A stretch of 32,974 bases of DNA, from contig CAYUCJ010000001.1 of the NCBI GenBank assembly GCA_964443285.1, forward strand, positions 1-32,974, in the 5' to 3' direction. Each line of letters begins with the position of its first letter. The first letter of the stretch is position 1. The notes beneath the pieces are model-generated. The model made no database searches. It saw only the letters and a list, made by a program, of their open reading frames with translations, and had not been told where the DNA came from. The position numbers and the translations under genes are program-made. This DNA comes from an uncultured Desulfobacteraceae bacterium. Its GTDB lineage: Bacteria > Desulfobacterota > DSM-4660 > Desulfatiglandales > Desulfatiglandaceae. Positions 10,351 to 29,672 of this stretch are shown in pieces.

Positions 10351-11022
10351 CTAATCTCTTATCCGAACGGCTTCTATCAGGTTCATGATCAGTTTGTAGC
10401 TCTGAGGGCCATGCGCGGAGAGCTCGATTTTTTTTGGGACCCCTGCGTTGCCTTCGGCGTCTTTCCCAGACGTAATCTTCACGGTTCGGAGCAGGCGATC
10501 ATCTTGCGCGTATTGTCTGATTTCCCAGTGTCCGCCGTGTCTGCAAAGCACGTCTTCGAATCCTCCATCGGCTTCTCGATGCCTGCAGATCGAGGTCCCG
10601 TTCTTTAGAAACCCTGACTCGACGGCTGCCCCCTCAGGCCTAAGGAAGATGAGACGAATGTCCTTTACGAGACCCTCCGCGAACGCTCGTGAATCGAAAG
10701 GGGCAAAGGCCCGGTTGACTGTGAGCCTCCGGCGGTAGGTTGCATCGAAGACCACCAGACCCTCAAGGGTCATGATGACGCAGTGAAAAGATCGGTCCGC
10801 AGAAGAAATCACCGCGATACCGATGACAAAAACCTTTTTCCCGTCAGGCATGACGTCTTCGATCGAATGTACGAACTGCCATTTGCCCTTCGGAAAATGA
10901 TTTAGACAGGTTTGACGGATCCGTGTTGCGGCGAGCCTCCCTGCCGGACCCACTCGCGGGAGGTTGCTGCACGAAGTGAGAAGGGCGACGACCGCCAGCA
11001 GTGGAAGGAGGCGTCTCATCAC
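10351..11022 (-). CDS. Lipoprotein of unknown function, cluster-associated
   Basis: 223 aa with a signal peptide and lipobox (MMRRLLPLLAVVALLTSC). The start overlaps the LolA-like stop (GTGA, or TGATG if ATG 11019 is used). Its size and its position beside the LolA-like gene recall the uncharacterised lipoprotein of aryl-polyene-type clusters. That link is an inference, not verified. Confidence 0.65.
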   Translation of the reverse strand: MMRRLLPLLAVVALLTSCSNLPRVGPAGRLAATRIRQTCLNHFPKGKWQFVHSIEDVMPDGKKVFVIGIAVISSADRSFHCVIMTLEGLVVFDATYRRRLTVNRAFAPFDSRAFAEGLVKDIRLIFLRPEGAAVESGFLKNGTSICRHREADGGFEDVLCRHGGHWEIRQYAQDDRLLRTVKITSGKDAEGNAGVPKKIELSAHGPQSYKLIMNLIEAVRIRD

Positions 11023-13170: not shown

Positions 13171-13437
13171 ATGGAAAATCTAATCAATGAGCTCAAAGTC
13201 AAGATCATCGATTTGTTGAATTTGACTGATCTGAACCCGGATGACATTGGTGCCGACGATCAGTTGGTCGGCACAGAGCTTGCGATCGACTCCATTGATG
13301 TGCTCGAAATGGTGATCATGATAGAAAAGGACTATGGCATCAAGATCGAAAGTCGTGAACTCGGAGTCAGAATCTTTGCAACCCTGAGGTCCTTGGCTGA
13401 ATATATTCATGAAAATTGCCGGGAGCTGCCCAATTGA
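13171..13437 (+). CDS. Acyl carrier protein (cluster-specific ACP 2)
   Basis: The ORF-track frame starts at 13153. ATG 13171 is preferred because GGGA lies 6 nt upstream. The attachment motif is LAIDSIDVLEMV. Confidence 0.85.
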   Translation: MENLINELKVKIIDLLNLTDLNPDDIGADDQLVGTELAIDSIDVLEMVIMIEKDYGIKIESRELGVRIFATLRSLAEYIHENCRELPN

Positions 13438-15593
13438 CGGGAACTCGGGCTTACATTTCAGGCATGGGGGTGATCAGTTCCCTCGGTTCTGGAATTTTGG
13501 AGACGACAGACGCAATTCGAAAGGATTTGAACGGTCTCAGACCTCTGACTCTTTTCCCCTCAACACCGAATTATCCTGTCGGTGAAGTCTCCGGACCGAT
13601 TCAAACAGATTCCCTCCCACGAACCCACCTTCTCGCCCGTCTAGCAGCTGATCAGGCAATGAGCGAATCGGACGAAGCGCCTGATGCGGTCGTCCTTGGA
13701 ATAACAACCGGCGGAATGTCGACAACCGAAAACCTTTTGGAAAAGAAGAAGGATGATCCAGGATTATTTTGCTATCATGCCGCTGCATCGGTTGCAGAAG
13801 ACCTCGCAATACGATACCTATGTACAGGGCCTGTGATTACTGTTTCCACTGCCTGTTCCTCCGGAGCTGTCGCCATAAAACTTGCCTTGGAAATGCTACG
13901 GGCCCGCCTCGCCGAAAGAGTTCTTGCTGGAGGGGCGGATGCGTTGTGCCGTTTGACCTATTTCGGATTCAAATCCCTGCAGCTCATCGACCCCATCGGT
14001 TGCCGTCCCCTGGATAGGGACCGGCGCGGGATGTCCATGGCCGAAGGTGCGGCTATGCTGCTGCTGACCAACCGACCTGATAGGGCAGTGGCAGAGGTCC
14101 TCGGAGCAGGATTATCATGTGATGCTTATCATCTTGTGAAACCGGATCCCCAGGGTAGGGGTGCCTTGGCTGCCATGCACGCGGCCATACTGGATGCAGG
14201 GATTTCGGCGTCGGATATCGACTATATTAACCTTCATGGTACCGGTACACCGGACAACGATTGTTCCGAGGCCGAGGCAATAAATACCCTATTTCCCGAT
14301 CAGAAACCCCTATTGTCGTCCGTAAAAGGAGCCTTTGGGCATTCTTTGGCCGCTGCGGGAGCCATTGAAGCAGTGATTTCAGCCATCAGCGTTTCCAGGG
14401 ACCTCGTTCCCGGCAATGAAGGGTGCCAATTTCCCGACGCCGATCTAAAATTAGACCCGGTTATGAAACCGACCGATTTCCCCGTTGATTGCGTGCTGTC
14501 GAATTCTTTTGGTTTTGGGGGAAACAACGCTTCTGTTATCATCGGTGCCCCTGGAAGGTCCCGCTGTTACGCCCCTTCCTCAAAAACGGAGCCTCTAGCG
14601 ATCCTCGGATACGCCTGCCTAACAGGAGCGGGAGATACGGAGGCTACGATGGCAAGAATATCCATGGGAAGCTCCTGCAAAGGGGTATTGTCCCTTCAGC
14701 GGATATCAAAAAATCTTCCGTCTCGAATCGTTCGCCGCCTAAAGCGCTTGCCTCGGATATCTCTTTCCCTAGCGATAGCGGCCCTTGAAAAGTCAGGCCG
14801 GACCATTCCACCCTCCTCAGTTTTCATGGGCACAGGTTGGGGTGCTCTCTCTGAGACTCATGATTTTCTGACACGCCTTTTCGAAACCGGCGGGCAGTTC
14901 CCGAGCCCTACAGACTTCGTAGGGTCGGTTCATAATGCTTCCGCCGGCCAAGTCGCTTTACATTTTCAGTCCACCGATGCCAATGTCACCACCACCGGAG
15001 GTGACTACTCTTTTGAACAGGCTCTCTTGGCCGCTCAGCTCCTTGCCAGGGACGGCAATAACAGTTCTTTTGTAATCGGGGCGGACGAATCCCATTCGGT
15101 ATTGTCCAAGTATTTCGACGATTCCGTCTTGACTGATGAGATCCTTTCCGATGGGGGCGGTGCTTTTTGCCTGTCGAATGGGGATAGCGAATCAGGTTTA
15201 TACATCCATCTCAGTTTTTACGAAAACGTACAGAACAATCCGGAAGTGGTGGCATCCCTCGTGTCACGTTTGGGTGGTCCGGCTCAGATACAAACTACAT
15301 ATGGAGTACTTCTGACGGGGATTCCCGGGGGTTGTCGGCGAGAAAGTGAAAAACAGTTCCGGCAATTCCTTTCTCTATCAGGCTTAAAAAGCCCTGTGAT
15401 TGATTACCGTAAACTAACTGGTGAATTTGCCTCCTCGTCAGCGGTTGCGGCCGTACTGGCGGCCGGATTCATGGAGAAAGGAGTGATTCCCGTCTCGCTC
15501 TGTAGCAACCGTTCAGCTCTCCTCGACGGGAAACGCGCCCTAGTCTTGGGGCTGGGCAAATTTGTCACGGCCTTGGAACTGTTGAGAAGATGA
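13434..15593 (+). CDS. Fused beta-ketoacyl synthase (KS-2) and Cys-less KS-like/chain-length-factor-like domain
   Basis: The ORF-track frame starts at 13416. TTG 13434 is preferred (TTGA overlap with the ACP stop, GGGAG 8 nt upstream). The N-terminal half carries VSTACSSGAV (Cys), NLHGTGTPDND (His), FGHSLAAAGAIE (His) and NSFGFGGNNASV. The C-terminal half (from about LAILGYACLTGAGD) repeats the KS fold start, but TTTGGDYSFEQAL stands where the active-site Cys motif should be, and no His-His pair is recognisable. Confidence 0.85.
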   Translation: MTGTRAYISGMGVISSLGSGILETTDAIRKDLNGLRPLTLFPSTPNYPVGEVSGPIQTDSLPRTHLLARLAADQAMSESDEAPDAVVLGITTGGMSTTENLLEKKKDDPGLFCYHAAASVAEDLAIRYLCTGPVITVSTACSSGAVAIKLALEMLRARLAERVLAGGADALCRLTYFGFKSLQLIDPIGCRPLDRDRRGMSMAEGAAMLLLTNRPDRAVAEVLGAGLSCDAYHLVKPDPQGRGALAAMHAAILDAGISASDIDYINLHGTGTPDNDCSEAEAINTLFPDQKPLLSSVKGAFGHSLAAAGAIEAVISAISVSRDLVPGNEGCQFPDADLKLDPVMKPTDFPVDCVLSNSFGFGGNNASVIIGAPGRSRCYAPSSKTEPLAILGYACLTGAGDTEATMARISMGSSCKGVLSLQRISKNLPSRIVRRLKRLPRISLSLAIAALEKSGRTIPPSSVFMGTGWGALSETHDFLTRLFETGGQFPSPTDFVGSVHNASAGQVALHFQSTDANVTTTGGDYSFEQALLAAQLLARDGNNSSFVIGADESHSVLSKYFDDSVLTDEILSDGGGAFCLSNGDSESGLYIHLSFYENVQNNPEVVASLVSRLGGPAQIQTTYGVLLTGIPGGCRRESEKQFRQFLSLSGLKSPVIDYRKLTGEFASSSAVAAVLAAGFMEKGVIPVSLCSNRSALLDGKRALVLGLGKFVTALELLRR

Positions 15594-16939
15594 AAATCCT
15601 GCTGGTCTCAGCCAACACTCTGAAGGAACCCTACCCTGTTTATCCGCTTGGCCTGGATTATGTGGCAGCGGCTGTCTCCGTCCATCACGACGTTCAGATC
15701 GCCGACATGAATGCCTTAGAAAGCTATGAACTGCTTCGAGAAACCATTGGAGAGTTCTCGCCCGATGTGGTGGGCATTTCACTGCGGAACATAGATAATA
15801 CCGACGTCTCCGATCCAATGGGGTTTGCCGAATCCTACCACGAACTTGTTGAGACGATTCGGGATTGTTCCGATGCGATACTTGTCTTAGGGGGAAGCGG
15901 TTTTACCATTTACCCTGATACGTTCATGAACGCCCTCAAAGCGGATTACGGCATTGTTGGGGAGGGGGAGCGTTTGGTCCTGCTCCTTGACGCGATCGAA
16001 AACCACCAAGATGCGGCGGTGATTCCAGGAGTGGTAACGCCCGGTCTTAGCAAACCCTTTCCGGGACCGTGGAAAGGAACTTTTTTTCGGGACTTTCGCG
16101 GAGACCGACCTCATGTAGAGTTTTACCTTAAAAGAGGCGGTATGTTGAACCTCCAAACCAAGCGTGGATGCGGCTACCGATGCATTTATTGCACTTATCC
16201 TCACATCGAAGGCCCTGTCCAGCGGTTCGTTTCCCCGGAAGAGGCGGCGGGTAGCGCGATTCAGCTGCAAGCGGCTGGAGCGAAATATCTTTTCGTTACG
16301 GATTCAGCTTTCAATTCTGACGTTGCCCACAGCCTAGATGTTGCCCGTGCCTTTGTAGAAGCGGGTGTGTCCATACCGTGGGGGGCGTATTTCACTCCTG
16401 CTGAGCCTCCCCCAAATTACTTCCGGATAATGGCAGATGCGGGGTTGATCCATGTGGAATTCGGCACAGAGTCCCTTTCCGACCGGGTGCTCGCATCATA
16501 TCGGAAACCTTTCAGGTCCCGAGACATCTTCGAAGCGCATCGGAGCGCCATTGACGCCGGGTTGCATGTAGCCCATTTCTTCCTGTTGGGGGGACCCGGC
16601 GAGACTTCGGACACCCTGGACGAGACCCTGGGGCGCCTTGACGGGCTTGAGAAGTCCGCTCTCTTTTTTTTCTGCGGCATGCGCATTTACCCGAATACGA
16701 AGCTGTTCGAGATGGCGGTCAATGAGGGGCAGACAGCGAAAAGCGAAAGCGTCATGGCGCCCCTATTTTACCGCTCGGCATTCATCGAAACCGCTGAGAT
16801 CCTTCGCCGCCTGAAAGAACGCGGGGAAGACCGCCTCAACTGGATCATCGGGTCGGGCGGCCGAAAGATGGCAAAGGTGATCGAGAGACTGCATGAACGC
16901 GGCCATACAGGTCCCCTTTGGGAATATCTCGTCAGATGA
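15590..16939 (+). CDS. Class B (cobalamin-binding domain) radical SAM enzyme, rSAM-3
   Basis: 449 aa. ATGA overlap with the KS-CLF stop. The B12-domain-like N-terminus is VVGISLRNID...AILVLGGSGFT. The CX3CX2C motif is TKRGCGYRCIYCTY. Confidence 0.9.
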   Translation: MKILLVSANTLKEPYPVYPLGLDYVAAAVSVHHDVQIADMNALESYELLRETIGEFSPDVVGISLRNIDNTDVSDPMGFAESYHELVETIRDCSDAILVLGGSGFTIYPDTFMNALKADYGIVGEGERLVLLLDAIENHQDAAVIPGVVTPGLSKPFPGPWKGTFFRDFRGDRPHVEFYLKRGGMLNLQTKRGCGYRCIYCTYPHIEGPVQRFVSPEEAAGSAIQLQAAGAKYLFVTDSAFNSDVAHSLDVARAFVEAGVSIPWGAYFTPAEPPPNYFRIMADAGLIHVEFGTESLSDRVLASYRKPFRSRDIFEAHRSAIDAGLHVAHFFLLGGPGETSDTLDETLGRLDGLEKSALFFFCGMRIYPNTKLFEMAVNEGQTAKSESVMAPLFYRSAFIETAEILRRLKERGEDRLNWIIGSGGRKMAKVIERLHERGHTGPLWEYLVR

Positions 16940-16985: not shown

Positions 16986-17345
16986 GTGGTCATGTGGTAC
17001 GAGGTAGAAGATTTTGGACAATCCGACGCTTGTGTGCTATTCGCAGAAGTTATCGTGCCGGCAGATTCACCCTGGTTCTGTGGCCATTTCCCGGGCGAAC
17101 CGATTCTTCCGGGGATCGCAGAACTGGGAATGGTCTTTGACACCATCGCTAGAGCTTGTGGTGGGAAGACGGCGATCAAGAGCATCAGCCGAGTAAAGTT
17201 CAAACAGACCGTCAGGCCCGACGATCGCTTGAAGATCTTTGCAGTCCCCAAAAAAGGGGACGGTGACGCTTATGACTTTCGCATCATGCGTGAGGAAGAA
17301 GTGGTCTGCAGCGGAGTGATGACGTGTCGAGGATCGCGGGGATGA
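16986..17345 (+). CDS. FabZ-like single-hotdog 3-hydroxyacyl-ACP dehydratase
   Basis: 119 aa from GTG 16986; an alternative ATG lies at 16992. WFCGHFPGEPILPGIAELGMV matches the FabZ catalytic block (F.GHFP..P..PG.L..E). Confidence 0.8.
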   Translation: MVMWYEVEDFGQSDACVLFAEVIVPADSPWFCGHFPGEPILPGIAELGMVFDTIARACGGKTAIKSISRVKFKQTVRPDDRLKIFAVPKKGDGDAYDFRIMREEEVVCSGVMTCRGSRG

Positions 17346-17462: not shown

Positions 17463-17750
17463 ATGTCCACCAAAATGAACGTTGAGCAATTAATCCTACG
17501 TGTCGCGGAAATCATCATCCAAGAGCTCAAGCTGGAAGATGTTACGCCGGAAACGTTCAATCCCGAGATCGATTTAGTAGACGAAGTGGGAGTCGACAGC
17601 ATGGATCTGGCCACCGTGGCTTTGGTCTTGCAGGATGAATATGCGATTCGGATCGATGAAGACGACTATCCAAGACTGGCGAACGTCCGCCTCATCGCTG
17701 AATACATCCTTCAAAAGCAAAACGAAGGGACTGAGAAATCAGCTGCTTAG
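17463..17750 (+). CDS. Acyl carrier protein (cluster-specific ACP 3)
   Basis: 95 aa with a strong SD (AAGGGAGAG). The attachment motif is VGVDSMDLATV. Confidence 0.85.
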   Translation: MSTKMNVEQLILRVAEIIIQELKLEDVTPETFNPEIDLVDEVGVDSMDLATVALVLQDEYAIRIDEDDYPRLANVRLIAEYILQKQNEGTEKSAA

Positions 17751-17763
17751 ATTGGAGAAGACC

Positions 17764-18861
17764 ATGGATCTCCTTAGAAGAGACCGGGTTGACGCCGGGG
17801 ACCGCGATACCCATAAACGATGGAGGTTCTCGGAAATTCTCGCTGATCGAGCGATTCGCAACAGATGGGAAAAGGTGCGAAAATATTTCTTCCTGCGCGA
17901 ATCGACCTACGACATGACCAATCGGTGTAACGTCCGGTGCGAAGGCTGCTATTACTATGAAGGTGAGAAACAGTTCGCACAAGAAAACAAGGACCCGGAT
18001 GCATGGAAAGAGCTGATGCAGTCGGAGAAGGTCAGGGGCATCACTTATGTGGTACTGGCTGGCGCTGAGCCTTCTCTGGTTCCGGATCTCTGCGAAGCGT
18101 GTTTTGAGGAAATGCCTTTGGGAACGATTGCCTCCAACGGGCTGAAAATCATCCCCGAATCGGTGGGCTATCGCATACACATCTCTGTCTGGGGAAACGA
18201 CAAAACCAGCCGTAAGGTACGGAAGGCCGCGGACATGCTCGTGAGGCAGATGGACAACTACAGGGAGGATCCGCGAGCTATTTTTGTTTACACCTTTACA
18301 CGGGACAACATCGATCAGGTATATGATGTGGCTGATTACCTCGTGAAAAATGGGTGTCGCCTCACCTTCAATGTCTTTTCGGCACCGGTCGGTTACAATG
18401 GCCCCTTGCGCCACACGGCTGAGTCACTTGCGCAAACCCGAAAGGCCATGATCGAACTGCTCACGAGGTATCCGGATCATGTGCTTTTCTCCCAGTATTC
18501 GGCTGTGGCCCACACCCATCGAAAGGGCATGCACAATCTTTACTCTTGCATGTACCCGCGCGTTAACCCTTCTTCAGACCTGGGGTTGGGTCGATCCTTC
18601 AGGCAGTACCGCACCGATCTCACCTGGGACAGAAACGCCGCCTGCTGCGTACCTGATACGGATTGCACGGATTGCCGACATTACGCCTCCGGCAGCGCGG
18701 TGGTGACCGCTCGAATGTTTCGCCATGCTGCGGGCCCTGAAACGTTCAAGGCCTGGCTCGACTATGTGGATACCTATCTTGCCGTCTGGGTGATGGGATA
18801 CGACAAAAGTCCCAATCTTTCCGACCGATTGGTAGCACCGCCGGGACACGACGTCCTTTGA
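17764..18861 (+). CDS. Radical SAM enzyme with Cys-rich C-terminal (auxiliary-cluster-like) motif, rSAM-4
   Basis: The ORF-track frame 17635..18861 is trimmed to ATG 17764 (GGAGA 6 nt upstream), because the longer form overlaps ACP 3. The CX3CX2C motif is YDMTNRCNVRCEGCYYY. The C-terminal motif is CCVPDTDCTDC. There is no B12 domain. It is a paralogue of the next gene. Confidence 0.85.
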   Translation: MDLLRRDRVDAGDRDTHKRWRFSEILADRAIRNRWEKVRKYFFLRESTYDMTNRCNVRCEGCYYYEGEKQFAQENKDPDAWKELMQSEKVRGITYVVLAGAEPSLVPDLCEACFEEMPLGTIASNGLKIIPESVGYRIHISVWGNDKTSRKVRKAADMLVRQMDNYREDPRAIFVYTFTRDNIDQVYDVADYLVKNGCRLTFNVFSAPVGYNGPLRHTAESLAQTRKAMIELLTRYPDHVLFSQYSAVAHTHRKGMHNLYSCMYPRVNPSSDLGLGRSFRQYRTDLTWDRNAACCVPDTDCTDCRHYASGSAVVTARMFRHAAGPETFKAWLDYVDTYLAVWVMGYDKSPNLSDRLVAPPGHDVL

Positions 18862-18911
18862 CCCGGAGACCGTTTGTTAGATGAAGACTCGGAATTTCTT
18901 GAGAGGCTCCG

Positions 18912-19910
18912 ATGAAGACGATCAATTCATTATTGGATCAACACTGGTACGAGCGCTACAAGCGCATTTCAAAACTCAACGTCCGCAGTTCGATCTACGA
19001 CGTGACCAATCGATGCAATTTGCGGTGCAAAGGCTGTTTCTTCTTTTCCTCAGGGGAACATGAAGCTGCTGCGGAGGAAACGGACATCAGGAAGTGGGGA
19101 ACTTTCATTGATCAGGAAAAGAAACGAGGGGTCAACCTCGCTATCTTGATCGGCGGGGAACCGACGCTTTGCTTAGACAGAGTGGAGGCGTTCTACAAGC
19201 GTCTACCGACGTTTTGTGCAACCAATGGCCTGATCAAGGTTCCGCGGGACCGATTTCCCGATTTGATGGTGGGCATCTCACTGTGGGGAGACGAAGAGGA
19301 TGAAAAGATCCTCCGGGGAAAATCCACCTTCGACATTTCCAGTAGAAATTACGAGGGCGATCAAAATGCCTATTACCTTTATACCCTCACCCCGAAGCAG
19401 ATCGGAAAGATCGACCGGGTTATACGAAGGATCAGGGATGTCGGTCTCAAAGTCCACATGCAGCTACTCTCCAACGACGAAGGTGTTGACGGCTTTTACT
19501 GGAAGCCTGAGGATCTCTCCGCCATACGGTTCGAGATGGACGACATGCTGGAAAGATACCCAGAGACGGTCATATCTTCTCGGTACTATCATGAAATCAT
19601 CACAACGGGAAAGATGTTGGGGAGACACTTCGGCTGGGACGAATGCCCTTCCGTCACGCAACTCTTGGATGTGCGGGCCCCTCCTCCTAAGCGGTTGGCG
19701 GGTTTTATCCGCTGGTCTTCGGACCTTGAGACCATGCACCGGTGCTGCACTTCCGAGACCAGAGACTGCTCCACCTGCAAGGACGGCGCAGCCCACATGA
19801 GCTGGATCATGGTGAACAAACGGGCACACATTCGCACGACGCAGGATCTGCAAAATTGGATCGAAGTCTATGAGATGTTCGCTAAACTCTATCAGTTCAT
19901 CCCATGGTAG
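18912..19910 (+). CDS. Radical SAM enzyme with Cys-rich C-terminal motif, rSAM-5 (paralogue of rSAM-4)
   Basis: 332 aa. Motifs: YDVTNRCNLRCKGCFFF and C-terminal CCTSETRDCSTC. It shares the blocks GGEPTL/GAEPSL, TNGL/SNGL and ISLWGD/ISVWGN with rSAM-4. Confidence 0.85.
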   Translation: MKTINSLLDQHWYERYKRISKLNVRSSIYDVTNRCNLRCKGCFFFSSGEHEAAAEETDIRKWGTFIDQEKKRGVNLAILIGGEPTLCLDRVEAFYKRLPTFCATNGLIKVPRDRFPDLMVGISLWGDEEDEKILRGKSTFDISSRNYEGDQNAYYLYTLTPKQIGKIDRVIRRIRDVGLKVHMQLLSNDEGVDGFYWKPEDLSAIRFEMDDMLERYPETVISSRYYHEIITTGKMLGRHFGWDECPSVTQLLDVRAPPPKRLAGFIRWSSDLETMHRCCTSETRDCSTCKDGAAHMSWIMVNKRAHIRTTQDLQNWIEVYEMFAKLYQFIPW

Positions 19911-21160
19911 CATCGTCAAAAAAAGTAGTCATCCTCGGCTATGACGCCGTTTCACCCTTGGGAACCGACCTGGAGACCGAGTGGGAAAAGGCACTCGGGG
20001 GAGAAAGCGGCGTCTCGAATTTGACGAGATTCCCGTTTGCGGAGGACTTTCCAGTGCGCTTCGCCGGTGAAGTTGGCGACATCGATGTCGGGCCTTACCC
20101 CTTTCTGAGCCCCCGCAGCCTGGCGCTCTGGCCATCTCCCATCTTCAAGTACGCCATGCTGGTGGTCCACCGAGCGCTTGTGAAGAGCGGTGTGGAAATT
20201 ACCCCTGAGTTGTCACCTAGAGTCGCTGTGACCTTTAGCTCGGCGGTGGGGGGGCAAGATGCCGTCGTGCAAGCCACCCGGCACATGGTCACCGAGAACA
20301 AACTGCCTCCCCCCTACACCAATCCCAATTCCTGTATCAACATGGTGGGGGGCAAGGTATCGATTCTCACCAAGGCCACTGGACCGATTACGTCGACCGT
20401 CTCCGCTTGCGCCACCGGCGTTGCTTCAATCATTGTAGGAGCGATGTTTTTGGAGCAAGGCATGGCCGACGTTGTCATTTGTGGCGCGGTCGATTTTCCC
20501 TTAGTTGAACCCATCGTCGCGGGGTTTGCCACAATGAACGGGGCCTATTGCTCCAAACCCGGAAGGGCGGAGGAACCAGCAAGCAATGCCAGCCGTCCGT
20601 TTTCGGCTGATCGAAGAGGGTTCGTGGTCTCCGAGGGGGCCGGCTGTGTCGTCATCGGCACGAAAGCATTCGCCGCCGCCCATGGGCTGGATTACAAGGT
20701 CGAGGTAGCCGGGTGGGGCATGACATCCGACGCCTGTCATTACGTGGCACCCCATTTGAAGACAGTAACCCGTTGCATCGCTCAGTGCATCTACGACGCA
20801 GGTATATCGCCTCACGATATCGACGCCGTCAATGCCCATGCGGCTTCCACGAAGGTCGGCGACAAGGTGGAATACGACGCCTTGAAGGAAGTATTCGGGG
20901 ATGCCATGCCGCCGATCTCGGCAAACAAATCTCTTACCGGTCACGCGATGGGAGCCTCCAGTGCGATCGAATCCGTTTTTGCCGTAGAGGGAATGCTGAA
21001 CGGAATTTTGTTGCCGACTATTAATTATTCGCCGGATCCCTCGATGCTTCTGGATTGCACGGCCGAAGGTGCTCGCCGGCTCGAGCAGGAATATGTGCTA
21101 AAAGATGCCTTCGGCTTTGGCGGGTTCAATTCATGCGTCGTTTTTCACAGGATAGCGTGA
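19904..21160 (+). CDS. Beta-ketoacyl-ACP synthase (KS-3)
   Basis: 418 aa. 7-nt overlap with rSAM-5 (ATGGTAG). The triad is VSACATGVAS (Cys), NAHAASTKVGD (His), TGHAMGASSAIE (His). The C-terminus is AFGFGGFNS. Confidence 0.9.
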   Translation: MVASSKKVVILGYDAVSPLGTDLETEWEKALGGESGVSNLTRFPFAEDFPVRFAGEVGDIDVGPYPFLSPRSLALWPSPIFKYAMLVVHRALVKSGVEITPELSPRVAVTFSSAVGGQDAVVQATRHMVTENKLPPPYTNPNSCINMVGGKVSILTKATGPITSTVSACATGVASIIVGAMFLEQGMADVVICGAVDFPLVEPIVAGFATMNGAYCSKPGRAEEPASNASRPFSADRRGFVVSEGAGCVVIGTKAFAAAHGLDYKVEVAGWGMTSDACHYVAPHLKTVTRCIAQCIYDAGISPHDIDAVNAHAASTKVGDKVEYDALKEVFGDAMPPISANKSLTGHAMGASSAIESVFAVEGMLNGILLPTINYSPDPSMLLDCTAEGARRLEQEYVLKDAFGFGGFNSCVVFHRIA

Positions 21161-21166
21161 GGAGAA

Positions 21167-22432
21167 ATGAAAGCCCCAAGAAATAGAAAGGTATTCGTTG
21201 TGGGATACAGCGTCGCCACGCCGTTGGGAAAAACCTTCGACGGGACGTGGGAGCGGGCCGTTCGCGGCGAGGCTGGTTTTCGCAGGCTGACCAGGTCTCG
21301 AACCACTTCTCTCGCCAACGTCGTAGGAGAGATTCCCGACTGGGACCCGATGGCTTTGGACTTTGTGGACAAAAAGGAAGCTTATAATTGGAACGCCGCC
21401 TATGTCTTGTTAACCATGAGCGTCTGCAAAGAAGCCCTGTCGCATGCGGGTCTGGAGATCGACAATGAAACCGGCCCCAGGACGGCCTGCCTGATAGGTT
21501 CCGCCCTAAACGGGGCGGATGCCTATCGCATTGCCATGGACAACTATGTGAACGAAGGACCGTACAAGGTCAGCCCTTATCTGCTTCCAAACCTTTGCGC
21601 CAACCTGCCCGCGGGAAAGGCCGGTATGCTTTTGGGATTCACAGGCCCAGTCTTCTCCCCCCAGGGTGCGTGCGCTTCTGGAAACCACGCCATCGGCCTC
21701 GGCGCCCGGATGATCAGGGACGGCGACTGCGACTTCGTTCTAGCCGGGGGCGTCGATGCCTGTCTTGTTCCGGAGATCGTGCAAGGCTTTGCCAACATGA
21801 ACGCCACGATCAAGGTTAGTCCCGAGGATCGCGCCCATGAGGACCCGACTCAGGCCTCCCGGCCTTTCAGCGTCGACCGGAAAGGCATCGTTCTTTCTGA
21901 GGGGGCCGGGGTTCTCGTCTTGGCCGCCGAGGATCTGCTCTTGGCGTACGGCTTGACGCCTAAGGCCGAAGTCGTGGGGATCGGCTGGACTTCCGACGCC
22001 CTACACTACACCCGACCCAACGCGGAAACGATCGTGCGTGCTATGCGGGAAGCCATAGAAGACGCCTGTCTTGAGGCTGCTGACATCCAATACGTTAGCG
22101 CCCACGGGACGTCTACGCCCAAAGGTGACACTACCGAGATCGGCTGTCTTCGAACTGTGTTCGGCCCCGCTCTCGAGAGGATTCCTGTGTCTTCGAACAA
22201 GTCTCAAATCGGACACACCCTCGGGGCGTCTGCCGCGATTGAAGCCGCTTTAGGGATCGAAGCTATGCGCCAAGGGCTGGTTCTTCCGACTGTAAACCAT
22301 GTTCCCGACCCCGCCTTCTCGGATGTGGATGTGGTCCCGAATAAGGCCCGCGCCTATCGATACGAACTGTTTCTTTCTAATGCTTTCGGGTTCGGAGGCA
22401 CCAACTGCTGCGTTGTCTTTCGAGGGGTATAA
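21167..22432 (+). CDS. Beta-ketoacyl-ACP synthase (KS-4)
   Basis: 421 aa with an AGGAGA SD. The triad is QGACASGNHA (Cys), SAHGTSTPKGD (His), IGHTLGASAAIE (His). The C-terminus is AFGFGGTNC. Confidence 0.9.
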   Translation: MKAPRNRKVFVVGYSVATPLGKTFDGTWERAVRGEAGFRRLTRSRTTSLANVVGEIPDWDPMALDFVDKKEAYNWNAAYVLLTMSVCKEALSHAGLEIDNETGPRTACLIGSALNGADAYRIAMDNYVNEGPYKVSPYLLPNLCANLPAGKAGMLLGFTGPVFSPQGACASGNHAIGLGARMIRDGDCDFVLAGGVDACLVPEIVQGFANMNATIKVSPEDRAHEDPTQASRPFSVDRKGIVLSEGAGVLVLAAEDLLLAYGLTPKAEVVGIGWTSDALHYTRPNAETIVRAMREAIEDACLEAADIQYVSAHGTSTPKGDTTEIGCLRTVFGPALERIPVSSNKSQIGHTLGASAAIEAALGIEAMRQGLVLPTVNHVPDPAFSDVDVVPNKARAYRYELFLSNAFGFGGTNCCVVFRGV

Positions 22433-22433
22433 C

Positions 22434-22913
22434 ATGAGACCGAAACCATTTGTCCCAGAGACTTTCAACGGAGACGAACGTTATGTGAGGGACAAGACCG
22501 ACGGACTCGTGTGGCACAGATGTCGGCAGCGCATCCTTTATGCAGATACGGATCGATCTCAATGCGTTTACCACGGGAATTACCTGCGCTATTTTGAGTT
22601 TGGCAGGGCTTCGTTGATGCGGGATACCGCCTACCCGTACCGGGAGATCGAAGAGAGTGGGTATGTGTATCCGATTATCGAGATCGGCGTCACCTACCAC
22701 AACCCGCTCTGTTATGACGATTCTATCGTTGTCTATACGCGTCCCGTGACGCTCGAACTGGTTCGGATAAGGTTCGATTATATCATCGGACTCGAAGAGA
22801 CTTATGAGATCATCTGCAAGGGATTCACGCGACATTGCGCCGTGAATAGTTCCGGCAATCCAGTGAAGGTAGACAGCAAAACGGCCTATTTATGGAAAAC
22901 GTTTCCCAAGTGA
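22434..22913 (+). CDS. 4HBT/YbgC-type hotdog-fold thioesterase (second copy)
   Basis: The ORF-track frame 22299..22913 is trimmed to ATG 22434, 1 nt after the KS-4 stop. The diagnostic block is ILYADTDRSQCVYHGNYLRYFEFGRASL. Confidence 0.8.
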   Translation: MRPKPFVPETFNGDERYVRDKTDGLVWHRCRQRILYADTDRSQCVYHGNYLRYFEFGRASLMRDTAYPYREIEESGYVYPIIEIGVTYHNPLCYDDSIVVYTRPVTLELVRIRFDYIIGLEETYEIICKGFTRHCAVNSSGNPVKVDSKTAYLWKTFPK

Positions 22914-24553
22914 ACGAGTCGGTCCGCATTCCCGTCGACCTCCTCATTCATCCCTATCTGCTGGACCATCGCTTTGAAGGCAGCGTCATCTATCCCGCGG
23001 TAGAAGCGATGCAGACCCTTGCAAAGGAGGTGAAGCGGCTTTGGCCGAATGCGGATGTCAACTCCATATGCCGTGCCCGGTTCGACAAATTTCTCTACAT
23101 CGACCCGAGTGCCTCTCGCGTACCCGCCTGGATCGACGTCACCGTACACGAAAAAGGAGACATCGCCGCCGCGCTCCTTACCAAAAGCAGGTCGAAACAA
23201 CACGCCATCACACGCGTCAAGGAACACGCCGCACTCTGTTTCCCTCTCCTCCAACCGGATCTCCCCGAGCCGCCCATTGATCTGATTTCAGCTCTCGAAG
23301 GGATCTGTCTTGAAATCCCTCCAGGGGACATCTATCGGTACCTCGTTCCCTTCGGTCCCTCTTTCCACAATGTCAGAAGCACCCTCCTCATTTCCGAAGA
23401 CGGGGCCATCGCGTGGACTTATGCGCCTCCAGCCCCCCCGGCCGGAGAAGATTTTGCCGGCCTGCTGGGGTCTCCTTTTCCCCTCGACGCCTCATTTCAT
23501 GCGGCTTGTGCCTGGGGCCAGCAGTACGGAGGAATCGTCGCCTTTCCCGTGGGGATCGAAAAGAAGGTCCTGTTCAAACGGACTAAACCAGGCGAGACCT
23601 ATGTCAGCCGGATCCTCCCCCTTCGCGCAGAGCCGGGACAGCTCGCCTTCGATATCTGGATCTACGACGAGGGAGGGACCCTATACGAGGCCGCCTGTGG
23701 CGTGCATATGAGGGATGTGAACGCAGGGCACATGAAGTCGCCCCCGTGGGTGATGGACAGGGGCACGAAACCTCCCTTGGAGAGAATGAGAAACTGTTGC
23801 CGCGGCATCTCAGTGGTGGAGTTGAAATCGATCCTACCGTTCGCCGAAAGGTCTCTTTCGGATCGTGAAAGAAAACGCCTGGAGGGACTGGGAGAGACTC
23901 GCAGGAGGAGCTACCTGGCGGCCCGATTGGCCTGTAAACGCCTCTACAGGAGGCTGAGAGGAGGCGACCTCGACACTCCCGCTTCCGACATCACCACCGT
24001 CTGTGCCGATCAGACCCGTCCCTGCTGCCCTCTGAGTGGTCATGAATCACCGGTTTCCTGTTCGGTGTCGCACGACAAGCGATTTGGCATCGCAGCGGTT
24101 TGCGATAATCTTGTCGGCGTAGATGTGGAAAGGATCTCCGAGCGGGTCTTAAAATCGCGGCATCTGTACATGAGTGACTCGGAACAACTCCTCGTCCGGG
24201 AGGCGGCTCTGGGTGAAATGGAGGCCGCGGTCAGGATATGGACGATCAAGGAAGCAGTCGCCAAGGCCTTGGACATGAACCTGGCTGAGTCGTGGAATCG
24301 CGTTGAGGTATGCACGGTCGGTGCTTTCGAGAGCAAGTTTCAATTGAATGACCACGACTTCCTGACCGCAGTCCACGAGACGGTGGGACGGCATCTGTTT
24401 ACACTCGTTTGCACAGCCTCACACTCGGATGGAAGTGCGACAGTCTTCGGTTTTGGCCAGCGTTTGCCCACCTCGAAAGACAGAGTGATGAAAACGTTGG
24501 TCGATGCGGGAAGAGGGGATGGTGACCTGGGTGGAAAAAAGTGGAGAGATTGA
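22892..24553 (+). CDS. PKS-type double-hotdog dehydratase (PS-DH) domain fused to an Sfp-type 4'-phosphopantetheinyl transferase domain
   Basis: 553 aa; an alternative GTG at 22910 would give a GTGA overlap. The N-terminal part (about 290 aa) has IHPYLLDHRFEGSVIYP, an exact HxxxGxxxxP motif, and later PLDASFHAACAW (DxxxH), the two signatures of polyketide/PUFA-synthase DH domains. The C-terminal part has RRRSYLAARLACKRL, VSCSVSHDKRFG, VGVDVERI and IWTIKEAVAKAL, the PPTase GxDxE and W(T/S)xKE(A/S)xxK motifs. Confidence 0.8.
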   Translation: MENVSQVNESVRIPVDLLIHPYLLDHRFEGSVIYPAVEAMQTLAKEVKRLWPNADVNSICRARFDKFLYIDPSASRVPAWIDVTVHEKGDIAAALLTKSRSKQHAITRVKEHAALCFPLLQPDLPEPPIDLISALEGICLEIPPGDIYRYLVPFGPSFHNVRSTLLISEDGAIAWTYAPPAPPAGEDFAGLLGSPFPLDASFHAACAWGQQYGGIVAFPVGIEKKVLFKRTKPGETYVSRILPLRAEPGQLAFDIWIYDEGGTLYEAACGVHMRDVNAGHMKSPPWVMDRGTKPPLERMRNCCRGISVVELKSILPFAERSLSDRERKRLEGLGETRRRSYLAARLACKRLYRRLRGGDLDTPASDITTVCADQTRPCCPLSGHESPVSCSVSHDKRFGIAAVCDNLVGVDVERISERVLKSRHLYMSDSEQLLVREAALGEMEAAVRIWTIKEAVAKALDMNLAESWNRVEVCTVGAFESKFQLNDHDFLTAVHETVGRHLFTLVCTASHSDGSATVFGFGQRLPTSKDRVMKTLVDAGRGDGDLGGKKWRD

Positions 24554-25278: not shown

Positions 25279-25632
25279 TCAGCGGCTCTTGTGCGTCAAT
25301 CTTTCAACGGCAACTCGTGTGGCCCAGCGCAGAAAAATCTTTGAATATTTTGCACCCGCTAAATACATGCCGAGCAAAAAAACCAAGTGGGACAGCCCGT
25401 AGAGTAACGGCCCGCCAACCGCTATTAGCGGAGGCATTCGCCAATGGATCGACAAGGCGGCTAGCACGCTTATCGCCGGCCAGCCGATGAGATAACTGAT
25501 CGCTATAGCGGATATTCCGAGCAGAACCCGGACCGAAGGCTTTTCCTGAAACGCGCTAAGATCAGCCCGGTCCTCGATTGCTTTGCGCACATAATCGGTT
25601 TGGGCAAGTTTTTCAAGTAGTTTCATTTTCAT
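25279..25632 (-). CDS. Small integral membrane protein, unknown function
   Basis: 117 aa. It is the only minus-strand ORF in this stretch. Hydrophobic segments (VLLGISAIAISYLIGWPAISVLAAL, LIAVGGPLLYGLSHLVFLLGMYLA) suggest 2-3 TM helices. No recognisable catalytic motif. Confidence 0.45.
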   Translation of the reverse strand: MKMKLLEKLAQTDYVRKAIEDRADLSAFQEKPSVRVLLGISAIAISYLIGWPAISVLAALSIHWRMPPLIAVGGPLLYGLSHLVFLLGMYLAGAKYSKIFLRWATRVAVERLTHKSR

Positions 25633-26573: not shown

Positions 26574-26609
26574 CCCTGTCAGACAGGCTTTCAGGCTTTG
26601 GATTTTAGA

Positions 26610-29600
26610 ATGAGACCGAAAATCTTCAACCCGTACATACTGATTGCGACCCTCCTAGCCTTGTCCTTGCTGTTCGCTGTGGGTTTCCACCGGTTGAAAG
26701 TCGACACGGACATCATCAATTATCTGCCCGAAGATCCCATCATCCAAAACGCCATGCACGTTTTCAAAAATCACGAAATCCAGGATCACGTTGTGATTGA
26801 CGTTTCTCTCGAAAAAAGAGGACTGGATCGACTGGTCGAATACGGCGACAAAGTCGAAGAGGCTTTGAGGGCCGATGGACTGTTCAAGACCGTTGGCTTG
26901 CGGAATTTCGCAAACTCAATGCCCGCCTTGGCGAGCTTCATCACAAAAGATCTCCCAGTGCTGTTTGACGAAAAGGAGCTGAACGAAGAGATTCGGCCTC
27001 TAATCCAGCCGGAAGCGATTCATAAGCGATTGGAGGAGCTTCATCGAAATTTGATGAACCTGGACAGCATCGGCCAGGCCGAATTCATCGAAAATGATCC
27101 CCTTGGACTAAAAAAATTTGTAATGGCCAGGTTGGCGTCGTTGGCCCCCTCCCAAAATGCCCATTTTTATAGGGGGCAACTCTTATCCTCTGACAATAGA
27201 CACTTGCTCGTGATCGCTTCTCCTAAGGGTTCGAGTACCGATACCCGATTTTCCCGTAAAGTGGTCGAGGCGATAAGCAAGATCGCCAAATCGCTGGGTC
27301 AAGAGGCATCCCAAAGGGGAGACCGCCTGACGCTGACCCCTGTAGGCGCCTACCGCGTTGCGCTCGACAACGAGCTGATCGTGAGAAGGGACGTCAAAGT
27401 AGCGATTCTCTTCGCGACCGTAGGTATTGCGTTGCTGCTCGTCTTGGCCTTTCCGAGGCCTTACATGGGGTTATTATCCCTTTTCCCATCGATCGCAGGG
27501 ACCATGCTGGCCTTTTTTGTCTTTTCCTTGCTACACCAATCGATATCGATTATGGTGCTCGGATTTGGGGGTGCCATCATATCTATTACCGTCGATCATG
27601 TGATCGCCTACCTTTTGTTCCTTGATCGCCCCCACTGGACCTGCGGAAAAGAGGCGTCGCGAGAGGTCCGTTCAGTAGGCCTACTCGCCTTACTCACGAC
27701 CGTGGGCGGCTTTGAAGGGCTCTCTCTTAGCGGATTTCCGATCCTCGAACAGCTCGGCCAATTCACGGTCCTCGGAATGTCTCTGTCGTTTGTCTTCACT
27801 CACTTCGTTTTCCCATTGATCTTTCCATCGATGCCTCCCTCCAGGCCGCGAACGTTGCCCCTTCAAAAGGTTGTAAACAAATTGGCTCGATTCGGGAAAA
27901 AGGGTGCCTTAGTCGCCTTCTGTTTTGCCGCAGTCATGCTTTTCTTCGCGAAGCCTGAATTCAACGTCAACCTTAGTTCCATGAACACCGTGAGCAAGGA
28001 AACGGCAGCCGCTGACAAACTCCTCGCAGATGTTTGGGGAAACGTGACCAACAAGATTTTTTTGATGGTTGAGGCGGACAGCATCGTGGACCTGGAGACC
28101 AAGGAGGATCGACTCCTGAAAAGGCTGGGCCCGGAACTGTCCTCGGGCGCTTTGTCATCAGGCATCGTCTCTTCGATGATCTTTCCGGGAAAAAGTAGGA
28201 GAGATGCGAATTTGGTGGCCTGGAAAAAGTTTTGGAACAGCGACAGAATCTCGGCGCTCAAGAAAACGGTGAAAAAGACCTCTGCCGAGCTCGGCTTTTC
28301 AACAGCAGGCTTTGAAACCTTTTACAAAACCCTTGAACCCTCGTGGCGTCCGGCGGGAAACTTCAACGTCCCCGAAGAGTTCTACCCCCTTCTTGGCATG
28401 AAGAAGAACCCCGACGGATCATGGATACAGATCTCAACTTTCACAACCGGCAAATCCTTCGATAGCGAGCGATTTTACGCGGAGCATCACAGTCTGGGAA
28501 GCATCTTCGATCCGATGCTCTTTTCTAAAAGGCTCGGCCAACTTCTCTTTTCCACTTTCCTGAAGATGCTCGTCATCATAGGGGCGGGCGTGGTTGTGCT
28601 CGTTTTCCTATTTTTCCTCGACTTGAGGTTGACCCTGGCTTCGCTGCTGCCGGTCGTGTTCTCGTTCATCTGCACCCTGGGCGCTCTGAATCTCCTGGGC
28701 CACCCCCTCGACATTTCGACCTTAATGCTCTCGATTGTCGCCATAGGAATGGGAATCGACTACTCTCTATTCTTTGTCCGAAGCTATCAAAGATATGGCG
28801 ATGCCTCACACCCCTCCTTCGGCCTTATCCGCATGTCTGTTTTCATGTCCGCAGCCACCACCTTTGTGGGTTTTTGTGCCTTGTGCTTCGCCGAACACAA
28901 TCTCTTGAGGAGTGCAGGTCTGACCTCGACCCTGGCCGTCGGATTTGCGCTGACAGGGGCTTTTTTGATCTTGCCGCCGGTTATGGAACACCTTCTTCAG
29001 GATCGCAAGAAGGACATCCTCGAAGGTCGGACGCCCGCAGAGAGAGTTCTAAGACGATACCGGAACATAGAGACATACCCGAGATTGTTCGCGCGGTTCA
29101 AGCTGCTTTTAGATCCCATGTTCATAGAACTGCCAGCCCTTTTGAACACCCATCAAAACGGCGTGCGGACAATTGTCGATATCGGGGTTGGCTACGGCGT
29201 GCCGGCGTGTTGGTTTTTGGAGTGCTTTCCAGAATCGAAGGTGTACGGCATCGAGCCTGACCCTGATCGAGTGGGTATTGCGTCCAAAGCGATTGGAAAA
29301 AGGGGGCTTATCACCCGCGGCCGCGCACCGGAAATGCCGCAGACGCCGACTTTGGCTGATATGGCGACCATGTTGGACATGATGCATTATCTGGACGACG
29401 AGGGTTTGAAACTTACGCTGAAGAGGTTGCACGGCAGTCTTTGCCGGGAAGGCTTTGCGATCATCCGAACGGCGCTCGTTCCTGAAAGGAAATTCCCATG
29501 GACATGGTGGATGGAGAATCTTAAGCTAAAGGCTCACGGAGTTCCAACCTATTATCGTCCCCTTGATGAAATCGAAAAAAGGATGATCGAGGCTGGATTT

Positions 29601-29672
29601 GTTATCGAGCACACCGCCTTTTCAGGGTCCAAAAAGGAATTAATCTGGCTTGTGCTGAAGATCAAACAGTGA
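26610..29672 (+). CDS. MMPL/RND-superfamily-type 'predicted exporter' membrane protein fused to a C-terminal class I SAM-dependent methyltransferase domain
   Basis: 1020 aa from ATG 26610; the ORF track begins at TTG 26598. There are two blocks of hydrophobic helices (about aa 270-420 and 640-790), each preceded by a large soluble loop, as in MMPL-type lipid exporters. The last 220 aa or so contain IVDIGVGYGVPACWFL (SAM motif I, GxGxG), VYGIEPD (motif II acidic residue) and MLDMMHYLDDEG. Confidence 0.8.
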   Translation: MRPKIFNPYILIATLLALSLLFAVGFHRLKVDTDIINYLPEDPIIQNAMHVFKNHEIQDHVVIDVSLEKRGLDRLVEYGDKVEEALRADGLFKTVGLRNFANSMPALASFITKDLPVLFDEKELNEEIRPLIQPEAIHKRLEELHRNLMNLDSIGQAEFIENDPLGLKKFVMARLASLAPSQNAHFYRGQLLSSDNRHLLVIASPKGSSTDTRFSRKVVEAISKIAKSLGQEASQRGDRLTLTPVGAYRVALDNELIVRRDVKVAILFATVGIALLLVLAFPRPYMGLLSLFPSIAGTMLAFFVFSLLHQSISIMVLGFGGAIISITVDHVIAYLLFLDRPHWTCGKEASREVRSVGLLALLTTVGGFEGLSLSGFPILEQLGQFTVLGMSLSFVFTHFVFPLIFPSMPPSRPRTLPLQKVVNKLARFGKKGALVAFCFAAVMLFFAKPEFNVNLSSMNTVSKETAAADKLLADVWGNVTNKIFLMVEADSIVDLETKEDRLLKRLGPELSSGALSSGIVSSMIFPGKSRRDANLVAWKKFWNSDRISALKKTVKKTSAELGFSTAGFETFYKTLEPSWRPAGNFNVPEEFYPLLGMKKNPDGSWIQISTFTTGKSFDSERFYAEHHSLGSIFDPMLFSKRLGQLLFSTFLKMLVIIGAGVVVLVFLFFLDLRLTLASLLPVVFSFICTLGALNLLGHPLDISTLMLSIVAIGMGIDYSLFFVRSYQRYGDASHPSFGLIRMSVFMSAATTFVGFCALCFAEHNLLRSAGLTSTLAVGFALTGAFLILPPVMEHLLQDRKKDILEGRTPAERVLRRYRNIETYPRLFARFKLLLDPMFIELPALLNTHQNGVRTIVDIGVGYGVPACWFLECFPESKVYGIEPDPDRVGIASKAIGKRGLITRGRAPEMPQTPTLADMATMLDMMHYLDDEGLKLTLKRLHGSLCREGFAIIRTALVPERKFPWTWWMENLKLKAHGVPTYYRPLDEIEKRMIEAGFVIEHTAFSGSKKELIWLVLKIKQ

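Follow-up and report, generated by a model that had tools for sequence, protein, structure and literature searches.

The window analyzed here is a stretch of 32,974 nt of DNA from an uncultured Desulfobacteraceae bacterium (contig CAYUCJ010000001.1 of assembly GCA_964443285.1, forward strand) and consists of a single long gene cluster of the lipid or polyketide type. Near its middle, two tandem genes for radical S-adenosylmethionine (SAM) enzymes, rSAM-4 and rSAM-5, directly follow the gene of a dedicated acyl carrier protein (ACP), ACP3. The two enzymes represent a new and well-delimited family of the radical SAM superfamily, which is marked by a C-terminal cysteine pattern and by its ACP partner. 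With moderate confidence, we favor a reading in which the pair carries an auxiliary iron-sulfur (Fe-S) cluster and tailors an acyl intermediate on ACP3, before or during its elongation by two ketosynthases (KS), KS3 and KS4. The central features are the following:

17463-17750 (+): ACP3, dedicated acyl carrier protein with the phosphopantetheine site DSMD (Pfam PP-binding, E=4e-8)
17764-18861 (+): rSAM-4, radical SAM enzyme of 365 aa (Pfam Radical_SAM)
17926-17949 (+): CX3CX2C motif of rSAM-4 (C55, C59, C62), radical SAM [4Fe-4S] site, invariant among aligned relatives
18547-18549 (+): C262 of rSAM-4, upstream cysteine and candidate fourth ligand of an auxiliary cluster; a cysteine stands at or near this position in nearly all relatives
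18643-18675 (+): C-terminal cysteine block CCVPDTDCTDC of rSAM-4 (C294, C295, C301, C304), from the alignment of relatives
18912-19910 (+): rSAM-5, radical SAM paralogue of 332 aa, identified by BLASTP to rSAM-4
19014-19037 (+): CX3CX2C motif of rSAM-5 (C35, C39, C42), read from the sequence and invariant in the alignment
19644-19646 (+): C245 of rSAM-5 (ECPSV), upstream conserved cysteine, kept in the rSAM-5 clade including the distant members P0337, P0364, P0369, and P0380
19743-19778 (+): C-terminal cysteine block CCTSETRDCSTC of rSAM-5 (C278, C279, C286, C289), from the alignment of relatives

The phosphopantetheine site of ACP3 lies within the motif GVDSMDLA, and the stop codon of the gene (TAG, 17748-17750) is separated by only 13 nt from the ATG of rSAM-4 at 17764, which has a Shine-Dalgarno-like GGAGAA upstream. 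A longer open reading frame (ORF) beginning at 17635 was rejected, because most homologues have a length of 365 aa and start at the position equivalent to 17764. rSAM-5 comes next and overlaps the start of KS3 at 19904 by 7 nt. The gene arrangement described in the first-pass annotation, which had been made from the sequence alone, is thus confirmed by the coordinates. The same annotation had called the two enzymes paralogues on the basis of shared motifs, all of which are present: the core motifs of rSAM-4 and rSAM-5 read YDMTNRCNVRCEGC and YDVTNRCNLRCKGC, AGAEPSL and GGEPTL, SNGL and TNGL, and ISVWG and ISLWG, respectively, and the C-terminal motifs CCVPDTDCTDC and CCTSETRDCSTC. BLASTP aligns the proteins with 27% identity over 330 aa (E=4e-36), a sequence similarity that places their paralogy far beyond chance. 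The CX3CX2C motif and the GGE-type SAM motif are retained in both, and both enzymes are probably catalytically competent, judging from these intact active-site motifs. In Pfam, rSAM-4 scores 40.5 bits against PF04055 and exceeds the gathering threshold of 29.5 bits; rSAM-5 remains just below it at 27.9 bits, while its homology to rSAM-4 is still clear.

Public databases offer little beyond this superfamily assignment. Both proteins and their relatives carry generic names (“radical SAM protein” or “MoaA/NifB/PqqE/SkfB family”), no curated model of the family exists in public databases, and the searched literature contained neither a paper describing it nor a characterized ACP-linked radical SAM enzyme of this type. 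SwfC of sponge symbionts, a possible relative, was rejected because it is of the B12-binding type. The assignment to a subfamily by hidden Markov models (HMMs), proposed in the first-pass annotation, did not succeed: no NCBIfam cutoff was reached by rSAM-4 or rSAM-5, and the model of the adenosylhopane synthase HpnH is not among the NCBIfam matches listed (all 22 for rSAM-4 and 25 for rSAM-5, E≤0.01). The weak matches that were obtained, namely NirJ, PapB, ScmE, SkfB, Tes, and MoaA, are confined to the 60-150 N-terminal residues that bind the cluster. When 1.84 billion representatives were searched exhaustively at E≤1e-3, just 468 clusters were returned, indicating that the family is compact. 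Nevertheless, at least 514 species-level genomes carry a relative in a scan of one genome per species.

Conservation and synteny were evaluated in the best 80 species-level loci of these genomes, which belong to Desulfobacterales, Syntrophales, and Spirochaetota; the counts given below refer to evaluable loci. Desulfobacter vibrioformis DSM 8776, an isolate, is among their hosts, as are metagenome-assembled genomes (MAGs) whose records bear the labels D. postgatei and Desulfosudis oleivorans. No gene of the cluster is more conserved than rSAM-5, whose median identity across the 80 loci is 79.7%; rSAM-4 reaches 71.2%. ACP3 shows a median identity of 69.4% (75 species loci). By comparison, the adjacent FabZ-like dehydratase (43%) and the fused dehydratase/phosphopantetheinyl transferase (46%) are less conserved in the same loci. 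Among the 120 best database clusters, homologues share 68-83% identity with rSAM-4 and 81-89% with rSAM-5. Purifying selection on the two enzymes is extreme across Desulfobacterales, Syntrophales, and Spirochaetota. In most of the 80 loci they are embedded in one repeated gene order, in which the following window genes surround the ACP3-rSAM-4-rSAM-5 unit:

16986-17345 (+): FabZ/ApeI-like dehydratase (Pfam FabA and ApeI-like matches), preceding ACP3 in most related loci
19904-21160 (+): KS3, FabF-like ketosynthase with a Cys-His-His triad (Pfam ketoacyl-synt N and C; the closest NCBIfam model is fabF, below cutoff)
21167-22432 (+): KS4, second FabF-like ketosynthase with a Cys-His-His triad (Pfam and NCBIfam scans; synteny)
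22434-22913 (+): 4HBT/YbgC-type thioesterase, probable release step (TIGR00051, 69.3 bits against a cutoff of 68.7; syntenic)
22892-24553 (+): fusion of a PS-DH dehydratase and a phosphopantetheinyl transferase, which probably makes holo-ACP (Pfam ACPS and PS-DH; syntenic)

ACP3 is located immediately 5' of rSAM-4 in 67 of 74 genome loci, rSAM-5 immediately 3' of rSAM-4 in 61 of 72, and KS3 after rSAM-5 in 45 of 64. Deviations from this order comprise two loci in which rSAM-5 is found elsewhere in the cluster (L039 and L041) and two with the arrangement ACP3-rSAM4-KS3-rSAM5-KS4 (L055 and L080). A second sample of 80 metagenome loci, found with a closer alignment (A5), contains relatives that are 44-75% identical to rSAM-4; here, an ACP-like ORF immediately precedes the rSAM-4-type gene in 76 of 77 evaluable loci. 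Within this sample, a clade that is 44-53% identical to rSAM-4 and mostly devoid of an rSAM-5 partner retains the upstream ACP in every case (18 of 18). In the window, the genes of the module are separated by gaps of 13 and 50 nt or overlap by 7 and 22 nt, and no terminator-like site was detected in the plus-strand intergenic gaps of this stretch. Therefore, the module genes are probably co-transcribed. Terminator-like sites overall do not exceed the expectation from shuffled sequence, and an Rfam scan of the window revealed no riboswitch or other RNA.

The genomic contexts of distant members (28-50% identical), inspected locus by locus, separate the ACP from the remainder of the module. One locus (L084) exhibits the order KS-KS-rSAM4-like-rSAM5-like-ACP-KS-MaoC-FabH, and another (L090) the order ACP-rSAM4-like-rSAM5-like without an adjacent KS, in which the second enzyme is 56% identical to rSAM-5. 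In two sulfated-polysaccharide loci (L081, 10001-11285, and L085, 10001-11255), a single rSAM-4-like gene is directly followed by the gene of an 86-aa carrier protein; the surroundings comprise many glycosyltransferases, sulfotransferases, and epimerases and no nearby ketosynthase. The protein of L081 is one named in a genome of Reinekea marinisedimentorum. ACP-rSAM pairs were also found beside a thiolase-like protein (L088 and L110), and a compact locus (L106, 20-6963) encodes a fatty acyl-AMP ligase (FAAL), a PlsC-type acyltransferase, a KS, an ACP, an rSAM-4-like enzyme, a membrane fatty-acid desaturase, and FabH. In an alphaproteobacterial MAG (L089, 7299-10082), the family member P0444 (381 aa) is located between genes coding for a LuxI-type autoinducer synthase and a LuxR-type regulator. 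LuxI enzymes use acyl-ACP, and this context hints at a radical-SAM-modified acyl-homoserine lactone.

Further details concern individual loci. The combination in L106 of an oxygen-dependent desaturase with a radical SAM enzyme is unusual. In another clade, represented by L110 (1534-8985), L088, and L087, the ACP-rSAM pair lies between the thiolase-like TLP1_add_C protein and a very large Ser/Thr kinase-NACHT-TPR protein.

Altogether, the adjacency of ACP and radical SAM genes was observed in at least five unrelated genomic contexts, and the common denominator of the family loci is the carrier protein, not the ketosynthase and not one end product. This shared partner is the strongest, though indirect, evidence that the substrate is most likely carrier-bound, and together with the counts given above it supports the earlier proposal that the enzymes act on ACP-tethered intermediates. 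The proposed order ACP-rSAM-rSAM-KS-KS is common in homologous loci; it is, however, not obligatory. Instead, the contexts of the distant relatives show that ACP plus an rSAM-4-type enzyme form the ancestral core unit, to which an rSAM-5-type enzyme was added in some lineages.

The reduction of the conserved unit to ACP plus radical SAM enzyme, even in glycan loci without KS, could also indicate that it is the carrier protein or the starter unit that is matured. In this scenario, the target of the rSAM-4-type enzyme would be the phosphopantetheine arm, the polypeptide of the ACP, or a very small group loaded onto it (malonyl or acetyl), and an unusual primer would be made instead of a growing chain being tailored. 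FabH-type priming enzymes, which accompany some of the clusters, would fit this scenario as well. However, the ACPs adjoining family members look ordinary, with a DS(M/L/I) site and one Tyr as the single extra conserved residue, and the searched literature contained no precedent. Both maturation of the carrier and synthesis of an unusual primer are hence considered unlikely.

The preferred reading, tailoring of an acyl intermediate on ACP3, also involves the C-terminal cysteines. Their conservation was assessed in 51 full-length members that are, except for each paralogue's own cluster representative, 23-41% identical to both window proteins. In all 51 of these distant relatives the CX3CX2C cysteines, the Gly of CxxxCxGC, and C294, C301, and C304 (rSAM-4 numbering) are invariant; CX3CX2C together with G61 is also invariant in all 109 aligned relatives. 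The second residue of the “CC” pair, C295, is a Cys in 37 of 51 members and otherwise G, A, or P. Consequently, the C-terminal motif noted in the first-pass annotation persists in three invariant cysteines, while the di-Cys is no conserved pair; a loss of these cysteines among homologues, which would have spoken against a functional site, was not observed. Nearly all members exhibit an additional Cys 25-35 residues upstream of the block (C262 in rSAM-4 and C245 in rSAM-5), and the family pattern can be written as C-x~25-35-C(C)-x5/6-C-x2-C, with only four to five conserved C-terminal cysteines. Four conserved cysteines very probably correspond to one auxiliary Fe-S cluster, whose likely ligands, to judge from the alignment, are the C-terminal C-x6/7-C-x2-C block and the one upstream Cys.

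A relationship of this putative site to the SPASM or twitch domains had also been suggested. The conserved cysteines are consistent with the auxiliary site, but its SPASM/twitch nature is not demonstrable by sequence: PF13186 did not match the full proteins or their C-terminal parts at E≤10, Fer4 likewise gave no match to the C-terminal parts in the Pfam scan, and the cysteine spacing differs from the seven-Cys SPASM motif CX9-15GX4C-gap-CX2CX5CX3C-gap-C, which binds two auxiliary clusters (PF13186/TIGR04085). Structure prediction with AlphaFold2 (AF2) was somewhat more informative. An earlier model from 27 sequences had a predicted local confidence (pLDDT) below 50 in the Cys-rich region and uninformative Foldseek matches; it was replaced by a model of rSAM-4 from the 109-sequence alignment (pLDDT 92.8; predicted template-modeling score, pTM, 0.91). 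The final model displays alternating strands and helices that form a partial (beta/alpha)6 TIM-barrel core, and Foldseek assigns a probability of 1.0 to matches with SuiB, viperin, anSME, BioB, and HydE. The closest folds in the Protein Data Bank (PDB) are SuiB, BlsE, CteB, viperin-like enzymes, anSME, and DesII at template-modeling (TM) scores of 0.39-0.53. Since these are the best neighbors of the model, the family can be placed provisionally near the SPASM/twitch group, without a close solved structure. For residues 275-321, short strands and helices are predicted; the twitch domain consists of a beta-hairpin and a helix and holds one auxiliary cluster. Foldseek matches to twitch enzymes are weak, with query-normalized TM scores (TMq) of 0.23 for SpeY and 0.53 for BlsE.

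The same neighbors could point to a maturase of peptides that are made by the ribosome and modified post-translationally (RiPPs), with an unannotated precursor peptide, given the weak core similarity to PapB, ScmE, SkfB, and SuiB. This explanation is effectively refuted. All scores are far below the family cutoffs and cover the radical SAM core only, the approximately 45 residues preceding the core leave no N-terminal domain of the size of a RiPP recognition element (RRE), the gaps of 13 and 50 nt are too small for a precursor gene, and synteny with ACP, KS, and thioesterase genes extends over at least 150 loci. A peptide-maturase context, which the first-pass annotation had named as contrary evidence, was not found among the loci.

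A further set of weak matches concerns enzymes acting on finished membrane lipids. Both proteins weakly match the NCBIfam model of the tetraether synthase Tes (NF045702; 22.8 and 27.6 bits), the PDB search returned GDGT-MAS (7tol, E=7e-4), and the cluster encodes lipid acyltransferases and exporters. One might therefore envisage that complete acyl chains are coupled tail to tail or cross-linked in a Tes/Mss-like manner and that the proximity of an ACP gene is incidental. Yet the matches span only a cluster-binding region of 60-80 residues (residues 29-112 for Tes and 49-129 for 7tol) and remain far under the Tes cutoff of 450 bits, and a near-universal ACP adjacency over unrelated contexts is hard to explain with free lipid substrates. 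Action on finished lipids is thus regarded as very unlikely.

For the pathway favored here, the following course can be outlined. The substrate would most likely be an acyl intermediate that is thioester-bound to the dedicated ACP3, and a hydrogen of the acyl chain would be abstracted by the 5'-deoxyadenosyl radical. Enzymes of the anSME and BtrN types use an auxiliary cluster to take away the second electron. In rSAM-4 and rSAM-5, an auxiliary cluster ligated entirely by Cys might do likewise, and the net reaction would likely be a two-electron oxidation. The outcome could be an oxygen-independent desaturation, an oxidation, or the formation of a C-C bond at positions that ordinary fatty acid synthase chemistry cannot reach, and the rSAM-5-type enzyme may add a second, related step. 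KS3 and KS4 would then extend the modified unit and the 4HBT thioesterase would release it, after which the acyltransferase, LolA, and MMPL proteins of the cluster, which resemble those of aryl polyene (APE) clusters, could incorporate it into a lipid of the outer-membrane type. Several points weigh against this course. The results fit oxidation, C-C coupling, adenosylation, or sulfur insertion alike. The auxiliary cluster is proposed from cysteine conservation alone, and no SPASM or twitch HMM matched rSAM-4 or rSAM-5. No ACP adjoins the relatives in L086 and L082, the latter of which lies beside an MBOAT gene, and we know of no lipid product of this cluster type.

A broader interpretation can be put forward more tentatively. 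rSAM-4 and rSAM-5 could be the founders of a large and so far unrecognized carrier-protein-dependent radical SAM family, which would install an undescribed modification on acyl-ACP and serve at least three kinds of products. With the same reserve, these would be the outer-membrane lipids of anaerobes, the acyl groups that decorate sulfated polysaccharides, and possibly signals of the acyl-homoserine-lactone type. If true, radical SAM chemistry on ketoacyl (non-isoprenoid) lipids would gain only about its third example, and the interpretation would explain what the widespread “ladderane” calls of biosynthetic gene clusters (BGCs) outside the anammox bacteria encode.

The wider gene content of the window bears on these ladderane calls. 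The window contains three ACPs, at least six KS-type genes, FabG, and three dehydratase-type genes, while neither an enoyl-ACP reductase nor a phytoene-desaturase-like gene is present among its annotated ORFs; unsaturated intermediates are plausible because an enoyl reductase is lacking. Genes for export and anchoring include LolA, LpxL-like, PagL-like, GT2, GT25, and deacetylase genes, a set that resembles APE clusters. Three gene fusions are unusual, namely an MMPL-type transporter with a C-terminal SAM methyltransferase domain (26598-29672, +), a FakA-like (Dak2) domain with DegV (1414-3132, +), and the PS-DH/phosphopantetheinyl transferase described above (22892-24553, +). Two conserved genes have no Pfam match, one of 223 aa beside LolA (10351-11022, -) and one for a probable membrane protein of 117 aa (25279-25632, -); both are syntenic in many related loci with 30-81% identity. 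Three further radical SAM genes carry an N-terminal B12-binding domain (7513-9003, +; 9012-10271, -; 15590-16939, +). The second of these is nearly as conserved as rSAM-5, with a median identity of 77.6% across loci, and the third passes the NCBIfam model TIGR04072 (“lipid biosynthesis B12-binding/radical SAM protein”). Between ACP2 and the latter gene lies the gene of a 725-aa protein in which a ketosynthase is fused to a chain-length-factor (CLF)-like half (Ketoacyl-synt_2; 13416-15593, +).

The first-pass annotation had proposed, as an example, that the pair performs ring closures or cross-links on a polyene. Rings would then be closed, or a polyenoyl-ACP cross-linked, while the chain is being elongated, as “type c” ladderane proposals envisage. 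Elongation-coupled ring closure by radical SAM enzymes is the subject of published proposals (PMC10139942; PMC13459092), and several features of the window agree with it: polyene intermediates are plausible without an enoyl reductase, the KS-CLF fusion and the FabZ-like gene mirror anammox cluster I, and the B12-binding radical SAM enzyme beside the module (15590-16939) reaches 379.4 bits with TIGR04072 (rSAM_ladder_B12), whose cutoff is 360, which makes the cluster one of the “ladderane-like” type. It is this neighboring enzyme, however, and not rSAM-4 or rSAM-5, that matches the model by which a ladderane-type cluster is recognized. The resemblance to anammox cluster I likewise concerns the block of ACP2, KS-CLF, B12-binding radical SAM, and FabZ genes.

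Since Kuenenia exhibits the order FabZ-ACP-FabG-rSAM-rSAM (kuste3339-3343), the two radical SAM genes kuste3342 and kuste3343 were tested as counterparts. The comparison used the partial gene sequences of Javidpour's S2 table and covers these two genes, not whole anammox genomes. The N-terminus of kuste3342 is B12-binding and 39% identical to the B12-binding radical SAM protein of the window, and the partial sequence of kuste3343 belongs to a generic enzyme (CNLRCLYC/GGGEPLL) that matches rSAM-4/5 over only 58 residues and lacks the family-invariant Gly of CxxxCxGC. On the basis of these partial sequences, both were rejected as orthologues. Because these partial sequences, which are N-terminal, do not match, rSAM-4 and rSAM-5 seem to lie outside the gene set discussed for ladderanes. 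Moreover, Desulfobacterales, Syntrophales, and Spirochaetota are not known as ladderane producers, Desulfotalea, which has a syntenic cluster, contained no ladderanes (PMC2649909), and the cyclization of a polyene is implausible for relatives in loci without KS or for the one between luxI and luxR. The evidence thus does not support ring closure or cross-linking of a polyene by the pair, and this role is considered quite unlikely.

Genome-mining tools label clusters like the present one as “ladderane” in Desulfobacterota and many other non-anammox phyla, and these calls are acknowledged to be of unknown function and product (PMC9902471). Conservation within the cluster is highest in the rSAM-4/rSAM-5 pair, and its fixed pairing with a dedicated ACP provides a simple experimental handle consisting of one ACP and one or two enzymes; in addition, a cultured host exists in Desulfobacter vibrioformis DSM 8776. 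Once solved, the reaction would represent a new oxygen-independent route to functionalize acyl chains and would also sort the ladderane-relevant from the irrelevant parts of “ladderane-like” clusters.

Among known systems, the SPASM/twitch enzymes (SkfB, SuiB, PqqE, CteB, anSME, BtrN, SpeY, and BlsE) are the best sequence and fold neighbors of rSAM-4 and rSAM-5, with which they share the CNxxCxxC loop, the GGEP motif, and the partial TIM-barrel core. In SkfB, SuiB, PqqE, CteB, anSME, and BlsE, fully ligated auxiliary clusters serve redox roles, and the extra C-terminal cysteines of rSAM-4 and rSAM-5 suggest an auxiliary Fe-S cluster as well. The pair differs from this group in its cysteine pattern, in the lack of a SPASM HMM match, in TM scores of at most 0.53, and in its genomic partner, which is an ACP instead of a peptide or sugar pathway.

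At the level of the cluster, APE clusters share ApeI-/ApeP-like dehydratases, a KS/CLF pair, FabG, LolA-like and MMPL genes, an LpxL-like acyltransferase, a glycosyltransferase, and a thioesterase with the window. To our knowledge, radical SAM genes do not occur in APE clusters, and no aryl-starter activating enzyme was found in the window. The “ladderane” candidate clusters of anammox bacteria (kuste3603-3608 and kuste3335-3352 of Kuenenia) and the syntenic clusters of Desulfotalea are of the same class as the window (Rattray 2009; Javidpour 2016). Common to the window and the anammox clusters are dedicated ACPs, a KS/CLF pair, a FabZ variant, a TIGR04072 B12-binding radical SAM enzyme, a polysaccharide deacetylase, and an MMPL-like exporter, and the 725-aa KS-CLF fusion resembles, in one polypeptide, the amxFabF2/amxFabFmut heterodimer of anammox cluster I. 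The window differs by the lack of a phytoene-desaturase-like gene and by hosts that are not known to make ladderanes; the radical SAM genes are uncharacterized in both.

With regard to the chemistry itself, rSAM-4 and rSAM-5 share only the superfamily core with LipA, a sulfur-inserting enzyme with an N-terminal auxiliary motif, and with Jaw5, a HemN-like class C methylase, which both belong to other subfamilies. Nevertheless, both provide precedents for the type of substrate proposed here, a tethered acyl chain that is modified while or after it is assembled. LipA is a radical SAM enzyme that acts on a protein-tethered octanoyl chain. The HemN-like cyclopropanase Jaw5/C10P, which works with an iterative polyketide synthase, demonstrates radical SAM chemistry on a carrier-tethered acyl chain (PMC13459092).

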